Source: a virus (Duplodnaviria > Caudoviricetes). From it: a stretch of DNA of 64,000 bases. The stretch is from positions 2,403 to 66,402 of the IMG/VR virus record IMGVR_UViG_3300031998_000074; one strand, 5' to 3'. Positions 3,508 through 28,800 of the stretch are shown here, one piece after another. How positions within the stretch are numbered: the stretch's first letter is position 1; the number at the start of each line of letters is the position of its first letter. Below the pieces are notes generated by a model. The model saw only the letters and a list, made by a program, of their open reading frames with translations, had not been told where the DNA came from and searched no databases. The translations under genes were made by a program, and so were the position numbers.

Positions 3508-4410
3508 ATGTTTGAAAATATTATAGGACAAGAGGCCATTAAGAATAATATAACAACTAATATATTATTTGCTAAGGGTACTCCGGGGGCTATAATACCG
3601 CATATATTATTCATTGGACCAGCAGGCTATGGTAAAACATTATTAGCAACTAGTATAGCCAAGGCCTTTGACAAACCGTATGTGTCCGGGTATGGCCCAT
3701 CCATTACTTCGGAAGAACAGTTAGTGAAGATGTTCCTATACCAGGATAAATTAATCCCGGAAGGAACTATCCTAATCATCGATGAGATTCATGCAGTTAA
3801 AGCTAACTTGCTTGAGAAGATCTATACTATTATGGAATCATTCTCGTTACCTGTCGGATCAACTACAATACAGTTCCCGAAGTTTACACTCATAGCTGGT
3901 ACAACTGATCCTCAATACTTAACTAAGTCAATGCGAGATAGGTTTAAGCTCACCTATGTCCTATCTAAATATACAGAGAAGGATATAGCAGACTTAGTCC
4001 GGCTTAAAATAGGTCCGGGTATAACTATTGATGATGACGTTTGTAAGAAGATCTATGAGTTTACCGCTGGTACACCCAGAAAGGTTATCAATCTTGCATA
4101 TAACTTGCGTGTCTATCTGTTCGTACATCCGAATAATAACAACCATGTAGACATGGATACCTTTGATACCTATCTTAAGTACCAGGGTTTAACAAAGGAA
4201 GGATTTACAGCTCAAGAATGTGAATACCTTAACTTATTAAGAGTGCACCAAAAGTTATCCGTAAATAGCTTAACGGCTATGCTTGGTATTAATGTTGGTG
4301 TAATCTTATACATAGTAGAGCCAAGCCTACTTGAAAGAGGCTTGATCCGGATTGTGTCCGGAGGTAGAGTCTTGACTGAGAAAGGTCAGGCCTTACTATC
4401 AAATATATAA
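3508..4410 (+). CDS. ruvB: Holliday junction branch-migration ATPase RuvB-like
   Basis: GPAGYGKT, IIDEIH, FTLIAGTT, MRDRF, GTPR, C-terminal winged helix with EPSLL and GR. Confidence 0.88.
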   Translation: MFENIIGQEAIKNNITTNILFAKGTPGAIIPHILFIGPAGYGKTLLATSIAKAFDKPYVSGYGPSITSEEQLVKMFLYQDKLIPEGTILIIDEIHAVKANLLEKIYTIMESFSLPVGSTTIQFPKFTLIAGTTDPQYLTKSMRDRFKLTYVLSKYTEKDIADLVRLKIGPGITIDDDVCKKIYEFTAGTPRKVINLAYNLRVYLFVHPNNNNHVDMDTFDTYLKYQGLTKEGFTAQECEYLNLLRVHQKLSVNSLTAMLGINVGVILYIVEPSLLERGLIRIVSGGRVLTEKGQALLSNI

Positions 4411-4421
4411 GGAGGTGTATT

Positions 4422-4742
4422 ATGATAAAAGTAACAAAAGCATGGATGACTACAGAATATTTAGGAGCATTGGATAGTAGATGTTTAATCTTCTCTACCA
4501 TAAACCATTATGCAACTAAGAAAGCTGTAGAAGAACAAGCAAAGGATTTTATCAAGTTTGTTAAGAAACATGGATATACAACTATTAATAAGACTAAAGG
4601 TTTATTAGATAGTGGTTTCTCTATAATTTGCACAAACAAAGAGGGCAAACAAGTTAAGTTTACGGCTTATCATGTAACCCTTAGCACACAGTGTAAAAGT
4701 ATTGATAGAGCAAAACATTTACGAAAGGATAAATTATGGTAA
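4422..4742 (+). CDS. hypothetical protein
   Basis: AAGGAGGT RBS, operonic position. Confidence 0.6.
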   Translation: MIKVTKAWMTTEYLGALDSRCLIFSTINHYATKKAVEEQAKDFIKFVKKHGYTTINKTKGLLDSGFSIICTNKEGKQVKFTAYHVTLSTQCKSIDRAKHLRKDKLW

Positions 4743-5032
4743 TGTCTTATCAATTAGATTATCCGGTAATTAACTTGTATGATAATGTGGTAGTGTTACA
4801 GTATAAAAGTTCAAATATGATCTTATGTGAGGATCAACGACTTGCAAACAAAATAGCCAATACGTATCTTCACAATTGTAATAAGACCATGTGGTCACAG
4901 TTAATGTACCGAGACATAAAACTTGCAACATATGTCATTGATAATATCAAAAAATATTATGGGCGTAACATTGCAAGCTTTATCAGAGTCAGTCCCAGGT
5001 TTATGATTCTTGAAGGGTACTTGACTTTTTAA
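4736..5032 (+). CDS. hypothetical protein
   Basis: overlaps the stop of the upstream gene. Confidence 0.55.
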   Translation: MVMSYQLDYPVINLYDNVVVLQYKSSNMILCEDQRLANKIANTYLHNCNKTMWSQLMYRDIKLATYVIDNIKKYYGRNIASFIRVSPRFMILEGYLTF

Positions 5033-5049
5033 CCGGTATTTGATATAAT
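5021..5049 (+). promoter_or_regulatory. sigma70-type promoter TTGACT-N17-TATAAT with extended -10 TG
   Basis: near-consensus -35 and -10 with 17 nt spacing, directly upstream of the sigma-like gene. Confidence 0.8.
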
Positions 5050-5072
5050 CACACATAACAAAAGGAGGAGTT

Positions 5073-5864
5073 ATGCTTGATGAGATAACTCGTAAGACAC
5101 GAGACGGTATAAGATACACCGATACCGAGATAGTGAGCAGTAAAGCAGATCCCTTGATGAGGGAGTTAGTACTAACCGGGTTATATAATTTTATATATAA
5201 ATTATATCTCACGCGCCTTATTGAAGACCAAAATAAGGAAGATCTTATTCAAGAAGCCTGTACCATAATGATTATGGTATACAACACTTGGCAACCTAAA
5301 GAAAGATATAAAGACAACCAGTATTCGTTCTACAAGTTCTTACTATCAAGTCTTTATAACCGACTACCTATGTTGAAGAATACTAAGTACAGTGGGTTGA
5401 TCCAGAAACCATACCTCACGAAGGAATATATAAAACAGGTTCTTGATAAACATCACATAACATATACAGAAGATGATGATCTGTTCAAGCTTTGGACAGA
5501 TTATATTTTTGGTATATCAAGTATTAATCCTCTGGACACAGTAGTACATAGAGACGATGAATCAGAAGACCTTACACTTAATGATGTTATCAAAGATACG
5601 TCTAACGATTTTTCAGCTGACCGATACTACACCCGGAACGAGATTCAATACACCATGCGCGACTTTGTCGGGGCATACAAGAACAAAGTCGAGCCTGTTG
5701 TATTTAACACCTTACAGAACATGCTCAACAATGAATTCGTTTCACTACAGGCTGAGGCCCGGAAGGCTAATATAATCGCAGAGAAAGAGGTGCGCAGTTT
5801 TACATCAAAAGTAAAACGCACACTCAAGCAACTCGCTAAAGATTTCAAAAATAAAGGCTTATAA
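5073..5864 (+). CDS. phage RNA polymerase sigma factor-like protein
   Basis: region 2-like EDLIQEA...FYKF and region 3-like PLDTVV...DLTLNDVIKD. Confidence 0.7.
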   Translation: MLDEITRKTRDGIRYTDTEIVSSKADPLMRELVLTGLYNFIYKLYLTRLIEDQNKEDLIQEACTIMIMVYNTWQPKERYKDNQYSFYKFLLSSLYNRLPMLKNTKYSGLIQKPYLTKEYIKQVLDKHHITYTEDDDLFKLWTDYIFGISSINPLDTVVHRDDESEDLTLNDVIKDTSNDFSADRYYTRNEIQYTMRDFVGAYKNKVEPVVFNTLQNMLNNEFVSLQAEARKANIIAEKEVRSFTSKVKRTLKQLAKDFKNKGL

Positions 5865-5880
5865 AGACAAGGAGGTTTGT

Positions 5881-6228
5881 ATGTCACGTATAACGCCATA
5901 CGCATTATTGATTACAATAATGGGTAGATATAATCGTTCAGTACAGAGCAAGTCACTCGGACGGGATCTTCATATATGTAAGATCATCCTTGATACATTC
6001 CGTTCGTATGATACAAAAGATTACGAGATCGCACAGTTAGTTCAATATGTATGTTCTTATGTGCAGACTTGTAAGCTACCACAATCATTTCCGTATACAG
6101 CAACGATCCTGCTCAACATCGCACGGCAGTATGTGTTCATTAAAGAGCAGTATAAGAGTACCCTCACTTTGAGTCCGGAACTACAGGAGTGGATTTCACA
6201 GGAAATATCAAAGTGTATAAATCGATAA
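5881..6228 (+). CDS. hypothetical protein
   Basis: AAGGAGGT RBS. Confidence 0.6.
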   Translation: MSRITPYALLITIMGRYNRSVQSKSLGRDLHICKIILDTFRSYDTKDYEIAQLVQYVCSYVQTCKLPQSFPYTATILLNIARQYVFIKEQYKSTLTLSPELQEWISQEISKCINR

Positions 6229-6244
6229 AAATATTGTATACTGT
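6227..6244 (+). promoter_or_regulatory. phage promoter-like motif AAAAATATTGTATACTGT
   Basis: exact repeated intergenic motif, with TGTATA 17 nt upstream of TATACT. Confidence 0.7.
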
Positions 6245-6272
6245 TAGTGAGTAGCACTTCAAATAGGGGAAG

Positions 6273-6650
6273 GTGATGCCAAATAAACCATACGCAATAA
6301 GAGAAATAAATACATCAGATATACACGTCATGCGCGAAGGCGCAATTATACCGGAAACATGTGAAGATATTGCAAGCTTAATTAACTACAACTTGTACCG
6401 GTTAGAGAACCCGGAATATGAAATAGCCGAGTTTAAACTCAAAGATGTTAAACCTTTGTGGGACACACTCGAGAAACATTATGGCAGAGCGTCGACTAAA
6501 TTTGTTATAATGTACTTATATTACTACATGGGGTTCTCTTACAGACAGATAGAACAGATATTACATATCTCTTTTGTGGCATGTTACAGGCATGCAATGC
6601 AAGCTATCGATTATTTAAAACAGGAGTTTTCAGATGATAAGCTTAAATGA
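6273..6650 (+). CDS. sigma70 region 4-like HTH DNA-binding protein
   Basis: YYYMGFSYRQIEQILHIS...RHAMQAIDYLK. Confidence 0.7.
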   Translation: MMPNKPYAIREINTSDIHVMREGAIIPETCEDIASLINYNLYRLENPEYEIAEFKLKDVKPLWDTLEKHYGRASTKFVIMYLYYYMGFSYRQIEQILHISFVACYRHAMQAIDYLKQEFSDDKLK

Positions 6651-14063: not shown

Positions 14064-14549
14064 ATGCAAAAACAGATTTTATTAGACGGAGACAAAAAGC
14101 TATTTACTGTATGTGACCCAGTCACTTTTCCCTTATCTGAAAAAGATAAAGGTACTATCCAGGATTTAATTGACACAACGATGGCAATTGACAATGCACT
14201 AGGCGTGGCAGCACCACAAATAGGTGAAACTGTACGTATCTTCGTGTATAATAATACAAAGGAGCATGGCACTGCAACTATGCGCGTCATGATTAATCCT
14301 ACTATAGTGAAAGAATATGGATCAACAAAGATGGGTTATGAAGGATGTCTATCTTTCCCGGGTTTTGTATATGAAGTACCTGCCTATGAGCTTATTAAGG
14401 TATCATATCAAGATGAGTCCGGACAGAAACATACACTTAAATTACGTGGCTTTGAAGCACGTATCTTTCAGCATGAGTTCAGACATCTAGATGGAATTTG
14501 CTGGCCGAAAGAAGCAATCAAACATTCAAAAGAGGAATTTAAAAAGTAA
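14064..14549 (+). CDS. def: peptide deformylase
   Basis: GVAAPQIG, EGCLSFPG, QHEFRHLDG. Confidence 0.93.
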   Translation: MQKQILLDGDKKLFTVCDPVTFPLSEKDKGTIQDLIDTTMAIDNALGVAAPQIGETVRIFVYNNTKEHGTATMRVMINPTIVKEYGSTKMGYEGCLSFPGFVYEVPAYELIKVSYQDESGQKHTLKLRGFEARIFQHEFRHLDGICWPKEAIKHSKEEFKK

Positions 14550-14550
14550 T

Positions 14551-14925
14551 ATGGCACGTAAAGAAACGAACAAAGAAGTTAAAACAGTAGCTTGTACCGG
14601 GTGCGGGAAAGGTAAGTTCACAGTACCGACCAGCACTAAGTATGTGTTCTGCCATCATTGCTTTACGACGTTAGGTAACAATAATAGGTACAAGCTAAAT
14701 ATGCCCATGTACAAACCTGTACATATCATTGTAGGAGAGACATATCAAGCAATAGATAATTATACATATAAGATAGTAAAGAAGGCGTACAAACTCAAAC
14801 ACAACGTGTTTTACGTATGTAAACGGCTACATGATAAATCGAAAGAGGTTTACGTACTAGGAGATTACTTTTTCAGTGCATTAGAGCAGGGGACTTCAAA
14901 TGCTAACAAAAAAACAGAGACTTAA
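14551..14925 (+). CDS. zinc-ribbon protein
   Basis: CTGC and CHHC; start moved to the ATG after the def stop. Confidence 0.55.
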   Translation: MARKETNKEVKTVACTGCGKGKFTVPTSTKYVFCHHCFTTLGNNNRYKLNMPMYKPVHIIVGETYQAIDNYTYKIVKKAYKLKHNVFYVCKRLHDKSKEVYVLGDYFFSALEQGTSNANKKTET

Positions 14926-17038
14926 TTATGCAAGAAAACAATTAAAAAAGGACTTTATTGGGATCAATGCTCAGATAGACTCAATTATAGATAGTATTGC
15001 ATCTTGGTATTTGCACCCGGAATTATGTACCAAACCGACAGTAATCTGTCTGTGGTCCATAACCGGACTCGGAAAGACAACATTAGTAAAAAATTTAGTT
15101 AATTATTTAGGGCTTGGCGACTGTTTCGTATCAGTTACCTTCAGCTCAAAAAGACATGGTGAAGATTCATTCAGCCAGCTTGTAGGATCTAAACTGGCAC
15201 CTACAGATCAGGGGATTTTATTCTTAGACGAATTTCAAAGATATAAAGCAATTGATAAGAAAGAGAACGACCTACGTAATATTGGGTATGATGATCTTTG
15301 GGGTTTATTAAGCGACGGTCAATTACTCAAACCAGCCAGTGCTGTGTTTGCTATGCAGACTATGCTCGAAATGATCGACGAATATAAGGCTGGTATCATC
15401 GAAGAATTACTCAACGCGGTTAAAGATAATAGTCGTAAGGATAGCCCTTGTGTTTACAGATCTTCCGGAGATGCAATAACATCCCACTCATATATGGGTA
15501 AGTATCAGTCCGAGCTTGGAAAACATGACAAGTCCGGATATATACCGCCACACGAATTTATATTTAAGGCATCTACCCTCGGAGAAAAAACATTCAAAGA
15601 GTTATTCAAATTACGTGCTGAATATAAAGCATTTGCCTATGAGCTGGATGCTAAAGAAGAACGTATTAAAGTAGAGTACTTACTTGAATCATTAAACTAT
15701 ATCTTCTTGCATCCGGTAGAACCAGAGAAATGGGATACCATTTCCTTCGACGATGTAGTTAACCTTATTACAGAAACACTTGAATACTATAAATATAATT
15801 TACCTAACGACAAGATGGCGTATAAGAAGCTGTTGGTTGTTATAGCCGGTAACCACGATGAGTTGTTTGGAGGCAAGTCTGAGTTTAGTAGTTCTTATAA
15901 AGATGTTGAATCCCTATATGACTACACAAGCAGACTTAAATGGTACCAACTTAAGTCGTTATTATTAACTAACTTGTACCCAGAACAAATCAGTAGGCTC
16001 GGCACAAATCATATCATCTACCCGTCGTTAACTGACAAGGCGTATAAGGCTATTATTAACAGGGAACTGAACTTTATTAAGTCCGAGTATAAACGTGAAG
16101 GTATAACGATTAAAATAACTGAGCGTGCCTTTGATGCAATATATAAGAACAGTGTGTTCCCAGCACAAGGCGCCCGGCCGATTAAGTCCAGGATACAAGA
16201 GATTGTATTAAGCCCTATCAGTTTATATGTAACTTTATATCCGAAGATTAAGTCAATTACATTTGATATAGATCCAACTGATAGTAAAGTTATTATCAAT
16301 GATAAAGAACTTAAATGTAAAGTTAATTTAGAAGTAACCGATAAAGAAAACGACGCATTAACTAGAAAGGATACATCAACCATAGTACATGAAGTTGGAC
16401 ACGCCATTGTAACGATGTGGTTATTTAACCTTCCATGTTTAATAGATCTTGCACCATTATCTTCGGATAGTGACGCATATACACAATTTCTCTTCTCACA
16501 AATACCGAACTACAGGAATATAACCGGGCTCAATAAAACAGCCCTGGCTAATATATGTATATACCTGGCCGGACGTGTTGCAGAAGAGTTTGTGTTTGGT
16601 ACTGAAAACACATCACATGGTAACTACTCCGACTATAAGATGGCTACACTGACTGCATCTAACTTATTACGTAACGTCGGTAACGGCAGTGGGATTGCAG
16701 CAGTGTCATCCCCGTTAACTTCTCCGTTTGACATAGACTCTGATCTTACACATGCAACCTGTGATGCAAGAGATGCTGAGATTGAAGCTTTACTTAAGAA
16801 AGAATATATGCGTGCTAAAGAAATATTAACCGCAGCTAAAGATGTTATGATTGGTATGGTTGAGTTCTTACAGAAGCATGCTTACATGTCAAGAAAGGCC
16901 AGTTTACCCTACCTTAAACAGATCCGTAAATTAAAGGCAGGTACCCGGGCCCAAACGTTATCCGCATTGGATATAAACAACATATGGAACAGTTTTAAAC
17001 ATAATGGTGTACAACACCTTAATAGAGGTAATCAATGA
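14900..17038 (+). CDS. ClpB-D2-like AAA+ ATPase fused to an FtsH-type M41 peptidase domain
   Basis: TGLGKTT, FLDEFQ, PEQISRL, GARPIK; HEVGH, LAGRVAEE. Confidence 0.8.
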   Translation: MLTKKQRLNYARKQLKKDFIGINAQIDSIIDSIASWYLHPELCTKPTVICLWSITGLGKTTLVKNLVNYLGLGDCFVSVTFSSKRHGEDSFSQLVGSKLAPTDQGILFLDEFQRYKAIDKKENDLRNIGYDDLWGLLSDGQLLKPASAVFAMQTMLEMIDEYKAGIIEELLNAVKDNSRKDSPCVYRSSGDAITSHSYMGKYQSELGKHDKSGYIPPHEFIFKASTLGEKTFKELFKLRAEYKAFAYELDAKEERIKVEYLLESLNYIFLHPVEPEKWDTISFDDVVNLITETLEYYKYNLPNDKMAYKKLLVVIAGNHDELFGGKSEFSSSYKDVESLYDYTSRLKWYQLKSLLLTNLYPEQISRLGTNHIIYPSLTDKAYKAIINRELNFIKSEYKREGITIKITERAFDAIYKNSVFPAQGARPIKSRIQEIVLSPISLYVTLYPKIKSITFDIDPTDSKVIINDKELKCKVNLEVTDKENDALTRKDTSTIVHEVGHAIVTMWLFNLPCLIDLAPLSSDSDAYTQFLFSQIPNYRNITGLNKTALANICIYLAGRVAEEFVFGTENTSHGNYSDYKMATLTASNLLRNVGNGSGIAAVSSPLTSPFDIDSDLTHATCDARDAEIEALLKKEYMRAKEILTAAKDVMIGMVEFLQKHAYMSRKASLPYLKQIRKLKAGTRAQTLSALDINNIWNSFKHNGVQHLNRGNQ

Positions 17039-17406
17039 GTTACGCATTACAAACACCTGAAGGTGAAGACTTGACTTCGTTCGATGTACAATATAGAAAG
17101 GACGGATCAATATATCATAAATTTGAGTTTTATCTCGTAGCCTTGTATAAACACATGGCTGCCATTCCGCCTAGTAAAGGTGGCACATTTTTGTGTGACA
17201 TCACAAAGCTACGCGCGGATCTTTTTGACTTCGTTTATGAGAACACATGTTCCAAAACTGTAAGTACAAAAATTAGTGATACTAAACGAGAGGATGTGAT
17301 AAAAGCCACAATAGATACAAAGAAACTTATACTTGATTGGTTCTTGCCAAAACAAGAGGCATTTGCCAATAAATGGAATTTAAAAATAAAACAAACTGGA
17401 GAATAA
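17035..17406 (+). CDS. hypothetical protein (paralogue of 21329..21703)
   Basis: shared C-terminus FLPKQxAFAxKW. Confidence 0.65.
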   Translation: MSYALQTPEGEDLTSFDVQYRKDGSIYHKFEFYLVALYKHMAAIPPSKGGTFLCDITKLRADLFDFVYENTCSKTVSTKISDTKREDVIKATIDTKKLILDWFLPKQEAFANKWNLKIKQTGE

Positions 17407-17407
17407 A

Positions 17408-17488
17408 ATGAATTGGCCAGAAGCAGTATTTTACACTGTAGCAATAATTTGCGGAAGTATCGTATTAATAAATTTATATAACAGATAA
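17408..17488 (+). CDS. 26-aa hydrophobic peptide (not in the ORF track)
   Basis: MNWPEAVFYTVAIICGSIVLINLYNR; GGAG RBS; fills the gap between two genes. Confidence 0.5.
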   Translation: MNWPEAVFYTVAIICGSIVLINLYNR

Positions 17489-17497
17489 GGAGAAAAT

Positions 17498-17740
17498 ATG
17501 GCGTATATTAAAGTGATCAGTAAAGGTCCCTCACAAGAGGAACGCGCAGCTGCCTTAGAAAAGGCTTTAAAGATATTTAAACGACAAGTTGAAAGGGAAG
17601 GTATCCTCAAAGACTTGAAGAAAAGAGAAGAATTTATTCCGAAGTCAGTGAGACGTAAACAAAAACGTGAAGAGGCTATTAAAAGACAACGCCGCTCACT
17701 CAAGAACAGAGCAAAATACTTCAAAAGACGTGATAAATAG
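17498..17740 (+). CDS. rpsU: ribosomal protein bS21
   Basis: LEKALKIFKRQVEREGILKDLKKREEFIPKSVRRKQKREEA matches the S21 pattern. Confidence 0.88.
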   Translation: MAYIKVISKGPSQEERAAALEKALKIFKRQVEREGILKDLKKREEFIPKSVRRKQKREEAIKRQRRSLKNRAKYFKRRDK

Positions 17741-17752
17741 GTGGTGATCTAG

Positions 17753-17983
17753 ATGTCGAAGAAAACCCATAAATTTCATAGGTTGGGTTATAAACGTGCT
17801 ATTACTATAGTACTTGATGAGATCGAATCTTTCGAGGACGGTGAGTGGGTAGACTTAGGTTCACCTGATGGCACTGTATACGAATGCACAGTATTAACAT
17901 TAAGGTCCGGAAAAGTATATTTTGTCTCCGAGCCTATTGATTTTATAGAAGAACTACTAGGGGAGATGGATAATGATCGTTAA
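17753..17983 (+). CDS. hypothetical protein
   Basis: AGGTGG RBS, operonic position. Confidence 0.55.
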   Translation: MSKKTHKFHRLGYKRAITIVLDEIESFEDGEWVDLGSPDGTVYECTVLTLRSGKVYFVSEPIDFIEELLGEMDNDR

Positions 17984-18572
17984 GATTTTAGATTGTACAC
18001 CGGACCCGGCTTTCACTATTAATATGACAGCTCGTCAGTGTTACAACAGCCGAGATAAATATGACAAAACCAAAGGAGTTGCCTTTGTCAAGGGCTTGAT
18101 TAGGTCCGGGCACTTAACACCTTTGGAATCAGCGAGTGTTGTATTTGATATTGAGGGTATATCACGAGCATGCTTAGCGCAGTTAACGCGACACCGTATT
18201 GGCGTGAGTTTTTGTGTTCAAAGCCAACGATATGTCAATCAAGAAAAAAGCGCGTATATCATTCCGCCGGACATTGTGAAAAATCAGAACGCCAGGTCGG
18301 TATATGAGAATGCTCTCATGACAACCCGGGCTGCATATCGGGAACTACTCCAATTGGGCATTAAAAAAGAAGATGCCCGGATGGTATTAACAGAGAGCAC
18401 TTGTACTAACCTCTCGATGACAGTTAATTTCCGTGAGCTACGTCATATATTTGAACTCCGTATGGCGAAGGATGCCCAGTGGGAAATCCAAGAGCTTTGT
18501 AAAAGCATGGCAAGCGAGCTTGATAAGCGTAGTTTGCGATGGGTTTACGAGGATATTGCAGATAAGTTGTAA
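17973..18572 (+). CDS. thyX: flavin-dependent thymidylate synthase
   Basis: GHLTPLE, RHRIGVSFCVQSQRY, EDAR, AQWEI. Confidence 0.95.
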   Translation: MIVKILDCTPDPAFTINMTARQCYNSRDKYDKTKGVAFVKGLIRSGHLTPLESASVVFDIEGISRACLAQLTRHRIGVSFCVQSQRYVNQEKSAYIIPPDIVKNQNARSVYENALMTTRAAYRELLQLGIKKEDARMVLTESTCTNLSMTVNFRELRHIFELRMAKDAQWEIQELCKSMASELDKRSLRWVYEDIADKL

Positions 18573-18580
18573 TTTCTTTA

Positions 18581-18598
18581 AAAAATATTGTATACTAT
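18581..18598 (+). promoter_or_regulatory. phage promoter-like motif AAAAATATTGTATACTAT
   Basis: repeated motif with TGTAAT 17 nt upstream of TATACT; precedes a non-coding tract. Confidence 0.7.
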
Positions 18599-18600
18599 AT

Positions 18601-19056
18601 TGCTAGGCCATTAAGCTACAAGGGGCTTTGCGACCTAGCCCACGCATCATCAGACTTATGTCTTTTGAATTGTCCGACATAGCACACACCTGGTGATGCC
18701 CAGTATGGAGAGGGAGAAATAGTCCGAGTCATTAGACGGCGTCCGGCGCATACCGGAAACGACAGCATCCTGAGTTTGGTTTAATGGACCATGAAGCGTA
18801 ATCCGTATTTAAGGGTTATGCCTAAACCAGGAAGGGACGAGAGGGTTTTTGATTATTTTACCCTGACTTCCTTTAAACCCCACATATGCCTCCATACCCA
18901 AAGAGATTCCGGTCTCTCTTAATCGCAAGTACTGGAGTGAACCCGCACTGATTACGGGAGGGATACCGACACCACACGTCGGTCGTGGTTAAAGTTCACC
19001 TAGTTTCTTGAACACCTCAGATGATGCCTGGTCCGGTAGGAAACCCGGACAAATTT
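18601..19056 (+). ncRNA. candidate structured ncRNA, about 450 nt, family unknown
   Basis: no credible ORF; long-range helices 18644-51/19020-27, 18703-10/18890-97, 18931-42/18994-19004; promoter motif before and hairpin after. Confidence 0.7.
19031..19056 (+). terminator. GC-rich hairpin, possible terminator or processing site
   Basis: GTCCGG-TAGGAAAC-CCGGAC followed only by AAATTT, so the U-tract is weak. Confidence 0.4.
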
Positions 19057-19597
19057 GAATATGTACGAGTATATTGAAAGTATTGTAATTATATTTGAGA
19101 ACTGCGAGTCTTTAACAATAAAAGGTAAAGATGTTGCGTACTTAAATTTATGGTCAGAACACGGTAAGTTTAATCTTGATACATTAGAGGGTGTTGTTTT
19201 TGACAACTACTTTGTTAACTTAGATATTGACTTATCTGAACTACCAAAAGAACAAGCAGCGGACCTAGTGAAACGTAAAGATATAACGTATTTAAGGCTT
19301 AAGATTAAAGGCCTAGACAATATCCTTGACGATACACTTACATTTCAAGTAGCATATCCTTGTTATTTCGATAGCTGGTTACCTAATCCGTACCAGGATA
19401 ATGAAGTAACAATTAATGAAGAGTCCGGGCATAATATACTGAATATATACATTCATAAATATTGGTCTTTGTTATCAATTAGACAGTGGCTTACAGATCA
19501 AGTCAAATCGTTCTTTAGATACTTTCCGAGAAATGTCTTGTGGATGTTAGAGAGTGCGTGGCTTGGTATAAAAGACCACCTAAAGTGGAGACACTAA
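19055..19597 (+). CDS. hypothetical protein
   Basis: 180-aa ORF co-oriented with neighbours. Confidence 0.65.
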   Translation: MNMYEYIESIVIIFENCESLTIKGKDVAYLNLWSEHGKFNLDTLEGVVFDNYFVNLDIDLSELPKEQAADLVKRKDITYLRLKIKGLDNILDDTLTFQVAYPCYFDSWLPNPYQDNEVTINEESGHNILNIYIHKYWSLLSIRQWLTDQVKSFFRYFPRNVLWMLESAWLGIKDHLKWRH

Positions 19598-19959: not shown

Positions 19960-20840
19960 GATTTCCAGTAGGCCTATCTGGCCGAAGTTATGGAAAACTC
20001 CAATGGGTACAGAGTATAAATTGGCCCTGTTGAGTATAAGTAGATAAAGTTCCCGGCTACCACATAGCGGACAGTACTCAGTCTAGTAGAGGACCTCCGT
20101 CAAAATCAATATGTGCTCCGAATACTAGGATAGTAGCGGACTCAACAATCAGGTGGCTAATGGTTGCCTGACTTCCTTAGGGATATGAAGAAAAACTATC
20201 TCTTACTTGGTGCATAATAAACCATGTACCAAGTCGATTTGAAAATTTGTGGCTTAAATGAAATACACATCGGGGTACATACCGTTGTGAATGTGTCAGC
20301 TACAGTGTGCTACGGAAGATAGGGTCTCATGTTCGAGAAGGACGTCCTCTCCTATAAACCAACAAGCTAGCAAGAGTTGGGAGCACCTTGTTAAAATGCT
20401 GAACTGCGAAGAGCCCGTGAATTTCGGGATGCCCACATAGATTTGTGTGCTTCGATGAGTGAGTTGTAGCAGTTGTATGGCCGACTATGACTCGATGTAG
20501 TTCGGAGTGCCTGGCGAAAATGCATTGAGTTAACCTAACGACTAATGCCATACATAGGTGCATTGAAGTGATGTTAGCCGGGTGTAGGCACCGGCCGGTA
20601 CACGAAACAATCTACATCTGTTAGAGAAGAGTGGCGTAGGTAAAACTACCAGAGGCTTCTTTAACCACACATACTTTGGAAAAGGATATAACCTCCCAGG
20701 CTTAAATGTTGTTAACATGTCAATGACGGCATTGCCTAAACAGGGGTGGATAATGAGCAAAACGTCCACTATGGTTGGATAATTCCATAAGGTAAAATAT
20801 TATCAGAAACCAGCCGGAAGTGCTCGTCCGGCTGGTAAAG
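19960..20840 (+). ncRNA. candidate large ornate ncRNA, about 880 nt, tRNA-adjacent (GOLLD/ROOL-like placement)
   Basis: no credible ORF; more than 12 local hairpins plus long-range complementarities; closes with a 10-bp hairpin at 20809-20836. Confidence 0.7.
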
Positions 20841-20848
20841 AGTTAAGT

Positions 20849-22470: not shown

Positions 22471-22524
22471 TTGACACATAGAGCCCGGACCCTCCTTCAA
22501 ATAAAAAGTCCGGGCCTTTTAAAC

Positions 22525-22542
22525 AAAAATATTGTATACTGT
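22525..22542 (+). promoter_or_regulatory. phage promoter-like motif AAAAATATTGTATACTGT
   Basis: exact repeated motif; preceded by a GCCCGGAC/GTCCGGGC hairpin at 22483-22515. Confidence 0.7.
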
Positions 22543-22890
22543 TATTGAAGGTGCACAACTTCCCTCTAAACGTTGTTTGCTCTCAAAAAAACACCCTCTA
22601 CCGGGGACCCCAAAATTATGCTTTTCACCCGGTAGACCAGCTCACTACACTGAGTGCCCGTTGGCTACAAAGCGGCGTTTATTTGTGGCAGTCTCCTAAA
22701 GGGAAAGAAACCATGGTTACTTTATCTTCCGTGTTTTCTGTTGTTTCCCTTTACCTCCTTGCGAAAGCTAAGAGTGCCAGGACCACTCACGAGACGAAAA
22801 AGTACTGCTCCGTCGGATACTAGCGTAAATTAGTATTAATTGGGCTTCCGGGCCAAACTACAAATCCTCCCGGCCTGGAAGCTCTTATTT
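22543..22890 (+). ncRNA. candidate structured RNA or long 5' leader, about 340 nt
   Basis: helices 22597-605/22628-36, GTCTC/GAGAC, GAGTG/CACTC, 22844-54/22872-82 followed by a U-rich run. Confidence 0.55.
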
Positions 22891-22905
22891 TGGAGGAAGA
22901 GGAAT

Positions 22906-27512: not shown

Positions 27513-28800
27513 GAATACGGGCCTGGAACGCCGCTTTACGATTTGTGTCATACATAAAGAAGAAGCTTTACTCTATGCACGCAACATGGGCTTTAAGCCT
27601 AAAATGCTTACAGAGCAGCAGTATCAAGATTTGATAGATGGTGTTTTTAAGTATTATGATACCTACCATAAGCTACCAGATGTAAGTGCATTTTCATTGT
27701 TTTTACAAACATTAAATAAGAGCAACCTAGAACAAAGGTCCAGGTCCGGACTTTTATTCCAGGAACTTTTAATCGAAGAACCGGACACAGATGAATATCG
27801 TGTAGTTGTAGATGCTATTATGCGGACCTATAAAGCAAATGAATTGAAGCGTCTTGTTCTAAGCTACCAGAATAACTATAACGCCTTACATATTGAAGAT
27901 ACGTTGAATGCTTTGGCAGAGAAGACCGCAGAGTTACGTGACTTAGGCACGGCAGAAGAACTTATATCAGAGTACACAGCCCGGGCACAGGAACGTATCA
28001 AGCACTATGAAGACGTTAAGAACAAAAAATATGAAACTGGTTTATTGTACAATTTTCCCACATTAAATAGAGTTACCGGAGGACAGGACCGTAGAACCTT
28101 ATGGGTTATTCGTGGTGGTCCGAAAGCCGGTAAGTCGACAGCTATGTTAAATATGGCAAATCATGTGTGTGAAAACGGTAAAAATATTGTATACTTTACT
28201 GCAGAGGTATCTCGCGAAGTTTTGGAACGCAGATTGGACTCTTTAAGAACTGATATACCTGCCATGGTTATTAAGATGGGTCAAATGACCGAAGAGGAAG
28301 AACGCAGATACCGCGATACACTTTTAACGCATAACCCGAATAGAGGTAAATTCGTCATAGTTGACGGTGGTTATATGACAACGGATACTATTCTTAACGA
28401 CGTTAAAAAATTAAAGAGCGAGATGACGATTGACTTGGTTGTTGTAGACTATCTCGGTCTTATTAAAACCCCGTATAAAGCAGAGTCTAGATGGGTTGAA
28501 GTTGGTGAAGTCGCAAAGGCTTTACGTGCTCTGGCTAAGTCCGAAAATGTTCCTGTTCTGACTGCTAACCAGTCCAACCGCAAAGGTGAAACTGCAAACG
28601 CACAAGAAGTTGATAGAACCTGCGACCTATTAATAGACCTGACGAGAGACAACCCGGATGAAGATGCAATTGCCGGAGCATCAGTTGAAGTAACAGCAAC
28701 TATAGTTTTCTCTCGTGACAGCGGCTTGGCTACATGGCCTTTAGATTGCCGCTTTGACTTTGGTAGGATGGAGGAGCCGATTACGGCTTTCACACGGTAA
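27499..28800 (+). CDS. dnaB: replicative DNA helicase DnaB-like
   Basis: GGPKAGKS, FTAE, VVVDYLGLI, TANQSNR. Confidence 0.9.
   Translation: MQESENTGLERRFTICVIHKEEALLYARNMGFKPKMLTEQQYQDLIDGVFKYYDTYHKLPDVSAFSLFLQTLNKSNLEQRSRSGLLFQELLIEEPDTDEYRVVVDAIMRTYKANELKRLVLSYQNNYNALHIEDTLNALAEKTAELRDLGTAEELISEYTARAQERIKHYEDVKNKKYETGLLYNFPTLNRVTGGQDRRTLWVIRGGPKAGKSTAMLNMANHVCENGKNIVYFTAEVSREVLERRLDSLRTDIPAMVIKMGQMTEEEERRYRDTLLTHNPNRGKFVIVDGGYMTTDTILNDVKKLKSEMTIDLVVVDYLGLIKTPYKAESRWVEVGEVAKALRALAKSENVPVLTANQSNRKGETANAQEVDRTCDLLIDLTRDNPDEDAIAGASVEVTATIVFSRDSGLATWPLDCRFDFGRMEEPITAFTR
28180..28197 (+). promoter_or_regulatory. promoter-like motif copy inside the dnaB coding sequence
   Basis: AAAAATATTGTATACT exact match, encoding KNIVY. 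Confidence 0.4.

Follow-up and report, generated by a model that had tools for sequence, protein, structure and literature searches.

A probable new family of large structured RNA encoded next to thyX in a small clade of uncultured bovine-gut or rumen phages

A tract of 460 nt located between the thymidylate synthase gene thyX and a 178-aa gene of unknown family in an uncultured phage (positions 18597-19056 of the analysed window, plus strand) encodes, with a probability that we put at about 80%, a real structured RNA of a new family. The phages that carry it are uncultured and form a small clade from the bovine gut or rumen. Its locus is of a modular build, in which a conserved promoter-like site is followed by a leader with helix P1 and the GCACACACC block, an optional block of ~330 nt, and a final hairpin that ends 10 nt before the next gene. 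Within the ornate ~330-nt block, a multi-helix domain 1 is arranged around an invariant junction, and is followed by a faster-evolving 3' domain.

Results

Locus and Source Phage

The window, i.e., the whole 64-kb stretch of DNA that was analysed, is a part of an IMG/VR virus record with an estimated completeness of 42%, and near-identical DNA is present in bovine-gut metagenome runs of several studies. Upstream of the RNA tract lies a complete thyX gene (17973-18572, plus strand), whose product, a flavin-dependent thymidylate synthase, matches Pfam Thy1 with E = 1e-57. The gene downstream (19061-19597, plus strand) starts with an ATG at 19061, 10 nt after P11, the last hairpin of the RNA, and all genes neighbouring the tract are on the plus strand. 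Most other genes of the window are preceded by AGGAG-like sites 5-10 nt upstream, whereas no Shine-Dalgarno site is seen at the usual distance ahead of the downstream gene.

Homologues of the downstream gene were found in the related contigs L002, L003, L027, L030 and L032. Its protein product did not match any Pfam family, matched weakly a PHROG of unknown function, and had no usable neighbour in the protein atlas. The AlphaFold prediction for this protein shows a beta-rich domain followed by two helices (mean pLDDT 71), for which Foldseek found no PDB match at E <= 0.001. In two of the contigs the homologues of this gene are adjoined by HNH_3 homing-endonuclease genes (L003, 5562-6059; L030, 4236-4775). 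An intein was noticed in the contigs L006, L007 and L009 of more distant thyX-bearing phages, the first gene of which encodes a family A DNA polymerase with an intein (weak Intein_splicing match and a faint LAGLIDADG match); the same polymerase in the related contig L010 is devoid of it.

Two tRNA genes follow the RNA tract, that of tRNA-Asp 0.8 kb and that of tRNA-Thr 3.2 kb downstream. Farther upstream, at 14900-17737, there is a cluster of translation and proteostasis genes, including those encoding an FtsH-like AAA+/peptidase M41 protein (14900-17035) and ribosomal protein bS21 (17498-17737). A 161-aa ORF at 14064-14549 is probably a peptide deformylase gene, as judged by synteny with L003.

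Folding, Composition and Coding Potential

The plus strand of the tract folds with an energy of -144.2 kcal/mol (z = -2.8), which was reached by none of 100 shuffled sequences; for the minus strand, z was -1.6 and 8 of 100 shuffles folded as well. The G+C content of the tract is 0.47-0.50 vs about 0.34-0.40 in most neighbouring stretches, with thyX, upstream, at ~0.45. The original prediction of a structured RNA at this place, made from the sequence of the window, quoted a number of perfect helices, all of which are there, including GCATCATC/GATGATGC at 18644-51/19020-27 and GTATGGAG/CTCCATAC at 18703-10/18890-97. By our own arithmetic, a perfect 8-bp helix is to be expected about 1-2 times by chance in 460 nt, and thus the quoted helices alone prove little; the support for the structure comes from the relatives of the sequence.

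The prediction had also described the tract as free of any credible ORF. Consistent with that, no ORF within it is conserved between the two lineages in which the RNA was found, referred to here as W-type and L-type. A minus-strand ORF of 50 aa (18768-18616) might be taken for a small protein gene, since an ORF located at this place in L003 encodes a similar stretch of ~17 N-terminal residues, and several of the differences between the two are synonymous in that frame. However, a 1-nt indel within the conserved block shifts the frame, so that the products are unrelated after ~18 residues. Moreover, the ORF has no Shine-Dalgarno site, all its neighbours are on the plus strand, and the same differences are compensatory in the RNA helices. 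The likeness of the N-termini thus reflects the conserved nucleotides of the RNA block rather than coding, and a protein gene on this strand is barely credible.

Comparison with Known RNA Families

When the whole window was searched with the 4227 models of Rfam 15 at their gathering scores, only two tRNAs were matched. As cmsearch assigned the RNA to no catalogued family, its earlier description as unclassified is borne out. With the threshold relaxed to E of up to 10, the window RNA, its 3' domain and the RNA of L003 gave only sub-threshold chance matches, with no relevant family among them: Baculoviridae_NAE on the minus strand (18.7 bits vs the gathering score of 51), IS1222_FSE (11.9 vs 45 bits) and, in L003, flpD (17.7 vs 40 bits). 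There was no Rfam match to ROOL, GOLLD, group I or group II introns, RNase P, tmRNA, 6S RNA, SRP RNA, T-box leaders or known riboswitches, which agrees with the view, previously reached by eye, that the RNA is not an RNase P RNA, a tmRNA or a group I intron. The ROOL and GOLLD models were not listed for the window RNA or L003 at E up to 10 even with lax filters, and with the group I intron model nothing was matched at E up to 10, whether the stretch searched was 161, 411 or 901 nt long. Several resemblances noticed by eye were rejected as well. A stretch similar to P4 of RNase P has no conserved partner strand and no support from Rfam, and neither a B12 box, nor a T-box sequence, nor a mimicry of helix 45 of 16S rRNA found such support. 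A literature search revealed nothing relevant on this RNA.

Homologues and Their Distribution

Relatives were collected from metagenome contigs encoding close homologues of the two flanking proteins, and by a scan for the invariant block of the RNA. Homologues of the RNA were found in two lineages only: W-type, represented by the window, L027/L028, L034 and L036, and L-type, represented by L003 and L029. Among the W-type sequences, L036 is exactly the same as the window, a single change separates L034 from it, and for L027 and L028 the identity is 97.9%; the metagenome runs X4, X7, X9 and X10 add further variants. The two L-type sequences, L003 and L029, are 98.8% identical to each other. Between the L-type and the window only 18682-18790 can be aligned by blastn, at 81% identity, and the flanking proteins of the two lineages are ~75% (ThyX) and ~53% (downstream gene product) identical. 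The closest syntenic relative, L002 (ThyX 76% identical), has the promoter and the downstream gene, and a leader of just 130 nt between them.

Beyond these lineages the RNA was not encountered. A blastn search of 50,697 phage records gave no match, no relatives were found in IMG/VR with ThyX or with the downstream protein, and pattern scans of IMG/VR for the invariant block yielded nothing. A looser pattern gave 13 IMG/VR matches, which we regard as chance ones, as their flanks have no similarity to those of the RNA. The scan of JGI metagenomes added only further W-type and L-type copies, plus five chance matches, and the one match among GTDB genomes, in Catenulispora, was judged to be due to chance as well; of the two models described below, R2 was applied to it and did not match. 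In the more distant thyX relatives L004-L013, thyX is followed by no gap. With model R1, 15 sources were searched, among them L002, L030, L032 and the remaining ORF-free tracts of the window, and no extra copy was detected.

Covariation between the Two Lineages

The main evidence for the structure comes from the comparison of W-type and L-type sequences. Of 80 base pairs that could be aligned by hand, 47 are identical in both lineages, 25 differ by compensatory double changes, and 4 by one-sided changes; 4 are broken. When the 3' partners in this alignment were slid by 1-3 positions as a control, only 1-3 double changes were seen, and ~35-45% of positions were paired. For a semi-independent check, a core covariance model of 136 positions (R1) was built from W-type sequences alone. 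This model recovered L003 and L029 at 88.9 bits (E = 1e-25), and in the resulting alignment, which is fitted to the model and contains three distinct rows only, 96.8% of cells were paired and 8 of 31 pairs were changed on both sides, as compared with 0-1 in slid controls. None of 500 shuffles reached this number of double changes. The compensatory changes that a model built from homologous phage loci had been expected to reveal are thus present. These counts are to be read as a few independent events, as two diverged lineages are known and the 3'-domain helices come from a manual alignment.

Several helices named in the original prediction are supported by this comparison: the P2 helix, both TCCGG/CCGGA hairpins and the AGAGA/TCTCT hairpin all have compensatory changes between the lineages, and so does the helix at the position of the ACTGGAGTGAAC/GTTCACCTAGT stem. 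The variation within each lineage points in the same direction. Apart from a compensatory change in P9, the changes in L027 either map to the loop of P9 or leave a pair intact as G-U, and the five differences between L003 and L029 are located in loops or junctions, or convert G-U to A-U.

Architecture of the RNA

Helices were defined in both lineages from conserved anchor blocks (positions within the RNA, the W index, are window coordinates minus 18596). The 5' end of the W-type RNA forms a hairpin, P0 (18602-18639), with a GCUAGG/CCUAGC stem and an inner stem. This stem, which had been predicted, is present in the window but confined to its own lineage: L003 is without P0 and its RNA begins almost directly with P1. 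The P1 stem-loop (18644-18698; 18644-53 paired with 18689-98) encloses a hairpin, P1a (18657-62/18676-81), and the conserved loop block GCACACACC (18682-90). In the W-type, P1 has 10 bp; in L003 it has 9 bp and one mismatch, with two compensatory changes. The leader of L002 contains an equivalent helix of wholly different sequence around the same GCACACACC block. In P1a, the sequence from run X10 carries A18658U together with U18680A, which turns an A-U pair into U-A.

A helix between 18644-51 and 19020-27 had been proposed to close a domain of ~380 nt. We did not find this to hold for the family, as this helix is restricted to the W-type and competes with P1, which covaries in three lineages. 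Thermodynamic folding of the W-type favours the long-range helix over P1, and that of L003 favours a different long-range helix, which consumes the 3' strand of P1 and P11. A conformational switch between P1 and the long-range pairings is possible on the basis of these predictions. The conserved layout is not a single closed domain but a chain, composed of P1, domain 1 closed by P2, P7, the P8 domain and P11.

Domain 1 (18703-18897) is closed by P2 (18703-10/18890-97), in which four pairs show compensatory changes, and contains the invariant 28-nt junction block (18717-18744). It further comprises the helices P3b (18728-30/18735-37) and P3 (18742-46/18753-57); a three-way junction in which P4' (18768-72/18828-32 and 18774-76/18825-27) meets P4 (18777-82/18786-91) and P5 (18796-804/18813-21); and a variable hairpin, P6 (18833-72). 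The 3' domain (18898-19030) comprises the P7 hairpin (18902-07/18912-17), P8 (18931-35 and 18937-41 paired with 18995-19004), P9 (18942-45/18955-58), P10 (18966-70/18978-82), and a W-type-only tail, in which 19020-27 is located. P7, P8 and P9 show compensatory changes when aligned by hand to L003, and within the W-type, P9 of L027 is changed from CCCG/CGGG to CCUG/CAGG, accompanied by many loop changes. P9 and P10 were not recovered by thermodynamic folding, and R2, a model derived from W-type sequences, gave only a weak alignment of the L003 3' domain (15.6 bits, E = 0.1). Thus, we regard the homology of the 3' domain (P7-P10) between the lineages, as it appears from the alignments, as tentative.

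The last hairpin, P11 (19031-19050), has 6 bp, two of them with compensatory changes in L003, and a conserved 8-nt loop, UAGGAAAC (UAGGUAAC in L003). This loop contains AGGA, and the element AGGA/AGGU is conserved between the lineages. The outermost pairs of P11 are loose, as seen from T19032C in L034 and in runs X7 and X9, and from a 2-nt deletion in L027.

When the MAFFT alignment was scanned for helices of 5 bp or more kept by both lineages, 31 were found, as compared with a mean of 5.3 and a maximum of 17 in column shuffles. Two of the 31 cross other helices. A candidate loop-junction pseudoknot between loop L3 (18748-52) and 18885-89 shows one compensatory change, and the pairing of UAGUC (18720-24) with 18987-91 shows one-sided changes only.

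Modularity and Mosaic Identity of the Locus

L002 retains the promoter, P1 and the downstream gene without the ornate block of ~330 nt (18699-19030), so that this block is a discrete module, dispensable for the locus. The leader of L002 continues after P1 with an A/U-rich stretch and then a strong hairpin, located 12 nt ahead of the homologous ATG. A comparison with L027 points to modularity as well. The identity between the window and L027 shifts sharply by segment, from 79% at the end of thyX to 98-99% in the RNA, 84% in the next gene, 98% in the following ORF and 66% in the gene of tRNA-Asp. This makes the RNA a discrete cassette, either strongly constrained or recently exchanged; the high identity to L027 could be the result of recent recombination rather than of selection. 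In the more distant phages L030 and L032, it is tRNA genes that immediately precede the homologues of the downstream gene, which indicates that genes of stable RNAs abut this gene without terminators elsewhere too.

Promoter-like Motif and Transcription Unit

A promoter-like site at 18567-18596 (plus strand) precedes the RNA. It consists of a -35-like hexamer (18567-72) and a 16-mer (18581-96) that ends with TATACT and recurs in the window, with four exact and three near copies in all, each on the plus strand. The other copies are at 462-477, 6227-42, 12051-66, 22525-40, 28180-95 and 36601-16; the one at 28180 is within an ORF. In a shuffle control that allowed three mismatches, this number of matches was attained by 9 of 100 shuffles. 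Often the 16-mer is preceded by a TGTGTAAAAA-like or TTGTAA element, and the 16-mer with its -35-like element is kept upstream of the RNA locus in three lineages (L002, L003 and L027). The copy at 462-477 ends 5 nt ahead of an ATG, a spacing that suggests a leaderless mRNA with transcription starting ~6 nt past the motif. By the same spacing, the RNA would start at ~18602, which is the first base of the 5' hairpin, in agreement with the expectation that it begins right after a promoter motif.

The other end of the transcription unit differs from what had been anticipated. AAAUUUGAAU lies between P11 and the ATG at 19061, and P11 was not listed as terminator-like in a simple terminator scan. 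The RNA had been described as self-contained, with a terminal hairpin and its own transcription unit. The hairpin is there, but there is no U-run after it and the RNA is not self-contained; with no intrinsic terminator and the next ATG 10 nt after the hairpin, the notion of a separate transcription unit fails. The simple scan, which covered the window up to 23500, revealed no plus-strand terminator between 19056 and 22520. The first downstream hairpin with a T-run, as read by eye, is at 22483-22521 (plus strand) and consists of an 8-bp G+C-rich stem, a 17-nt loop and CTTTT. It is a likely intrinsic terminator directly before the promoter copy at 22525, and probably marks the end of the operon. 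Since no plus-strand terminator is listed before it, we infer that the RNA heads an operon of ~3.9 kb with two small ORFs, tRNA-Asp, an ORF-free tract of 890 nt, three more ORFs and tRNA-Thr.

Other Structured Tracts

The ORF-free tract of 890 nt (19960-20848), located directly after tRNA-Asp, is G+C-rich and folds with z = -3.3; Rfam gave nothing for it at E up to 10. L027 has it with 97% identity, although the identity of the adjacent tRNA-Asp is only 66%. The end of the tract is formed by a 9-bp hairpin (20810-18/20827-35), 13 nt ahead of the next ATG, a layout like that of P11. The tract may encode a second large RNA. A third structured tract (22541-22900; fold z = -3.3) follows the promoter copy at 22525 and is ~70% identical to L002:6548-6826. 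The gene listed there with a TTG start at 22840 probably starts later, because there is a GGAGGAAGA at ~22890 and no Shine-Dalgarno site at the TTG. In L002, the region 4301-6548 contains four tRNA genes (Asp, Ser, Met, Thr) with ORF-free gaps of 0.6-0.7 kb, and short segments similar to window 20157-20206 occur in it twice, which may represent repeated RNA modules.

Discussion

Large, intricately folded RNAs of bacteria and phages are rare, and those of known function are mostly ribozymes or cores of ribonucleoproteins. ROOL and GOLLD, large ornate RNAs of phages and prophages, are not among the latter. The rumen-phage RNA resembles them in its length of several hundred nt, its many helices, and its occurrence in a phage-encoded tRNA island in the rumen or gut, but it is shorter (~330-450 nt), occurs in two lineages only, and abuts a gene without a terminator. 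Phage T4 makes small stable RNAs co-transcribed with its tRNAs. Similarly, the RNA described here is proposed to be a stable RNA released by processing from a polycistronic transcript of the tRNA region and not by its own terminator, although it is much larger and more elaborate than the T4 RNAs, and the processing is in this case only proposed.

As to function, we lean, at slightly under even odds, to a stable RNA that would be released by processing from the start of a tRNA/ncRNA operon transcript. The RNA would be transcribed as the first element of the ~3.9 kb operon and would then be excised to give a stable non-coding RNA, like the tRNAs at the same position in the distant relatives. Its invariant junction could be a working site for a protein, a ligand or catalysis, and the last hairpin would serve to mark the processed end, or to protect it, and not to terminate transcription. 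This reading is weakened by the finding of no terminator and no recognisable processing signal, and an RNA that abuts a gene without a Shine-Dalgarno site fits a cis-acting leader equally well.

That the whole 460 nt are an untranslated, cis-acting 5' leader of the downstream gene or operon is possible, if doubtful, and to the same degree the ornate block could be a sensor or a ribosome-loading platform, possibly switching between P1 and the long-range pairings. The promoter directly upstream, the ATG 10 nt downstream with no terminator between, and the AGGA/AGGU conserved in the P11 loop are all as would be seen in a leader. In addition, both lineages can form a strong long-range helix competing with P1, in the W-type between the 5' strand of P1 and 19020-27, and in L003 between the 3' strand of P1 and the 5' strand plus loop of P11, and the alternative partners of the P11 5' strand stay paired in both. 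Like T-box leaders and riboswitches, the phage RNA has a promoter on one side and a start codon on the other, and might form conserved alternative pairings. However, the competing helices are non-homologous between the lineages, no helix hides the start codon or forms a terminator, and no Rfam model of these classes is matched. Moreover, in the sister phage L002 the gene, the promoter and P1 are present and the block is missing; the block itself also exceeds known riboswitch aptamers in size. An unlikely reading is that of a functionless structured spacer or relic, spread by recombination among close phages and conserved through recent common descent. The mosaic identity of the window and L027 (66% to 99% by segment), the very narrow distribution, with nothing further in IMG/VR, JGI metagenomes and GTDB genomes, and the absence of the block from L002 would all be consistent with it. 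Against this, the diverged lineages keep the 28-nt invariant block and their helices through 25 double changes, and the variants within each lineage avoid breaking pairs.

The absence of the ornate block from L002, i.e., its being an insertion or a deletion, would also agree with a self-processing insert related to group I introns, with a P3-P7-like pseudoknot, placed inside an older leader; we consider such an origin quite improbable. The core of the idea is that UAGUCC (18720-25) would pair with G-N-GRYUA (18985-91), leaving one bulged base, in a candidate 6-bp helix similar in sequence to P7. The pairing holds in both lineages at positions aligned by MAFFT, as GACUA in L003 and GGUUA in the W-type, and is crossed by P8 in the manner of P3. 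The bases flanking it are similar to the consensus of the group I S and R elements, although in a permuted order, a resemblance that we take as a lead only. Yet the Rfam group I model remains unmatched on short stretches even at E = 10, and the order of strands is non-canonical, with the 3' strand of P7 upstream of its 5' strand. Furthermore, the pairing shows one-sided changes and not real covariation, and there is no conserved U-G of a 5' splice site, as the P7 hairpin has U-G in the W-type and U-A in L003. It would be rather surprising if the optional 330-nt block, inserted into an older leader and built around such a permuted group I-like P3-P7 pseudoknot, were a new self-processing or catalytic RNA that excises or circularises itself, or cuts the operon transcript to free the downstream mRNA.

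The preferred reading remains that of a stable RNA released from the head of the operon. The narrow distribution of the RNA limits the weight of the finding for now. Nevertheless, it would represent another class of ornate phage RNA from a tRNA island, one with a presence/absence contrast between sister phages and a sharply defined invariant junction. As such, it may serve as a compact test case for the roles of ornate RNAs in infection, be it the take-over of translation, RNA processing or sensing.
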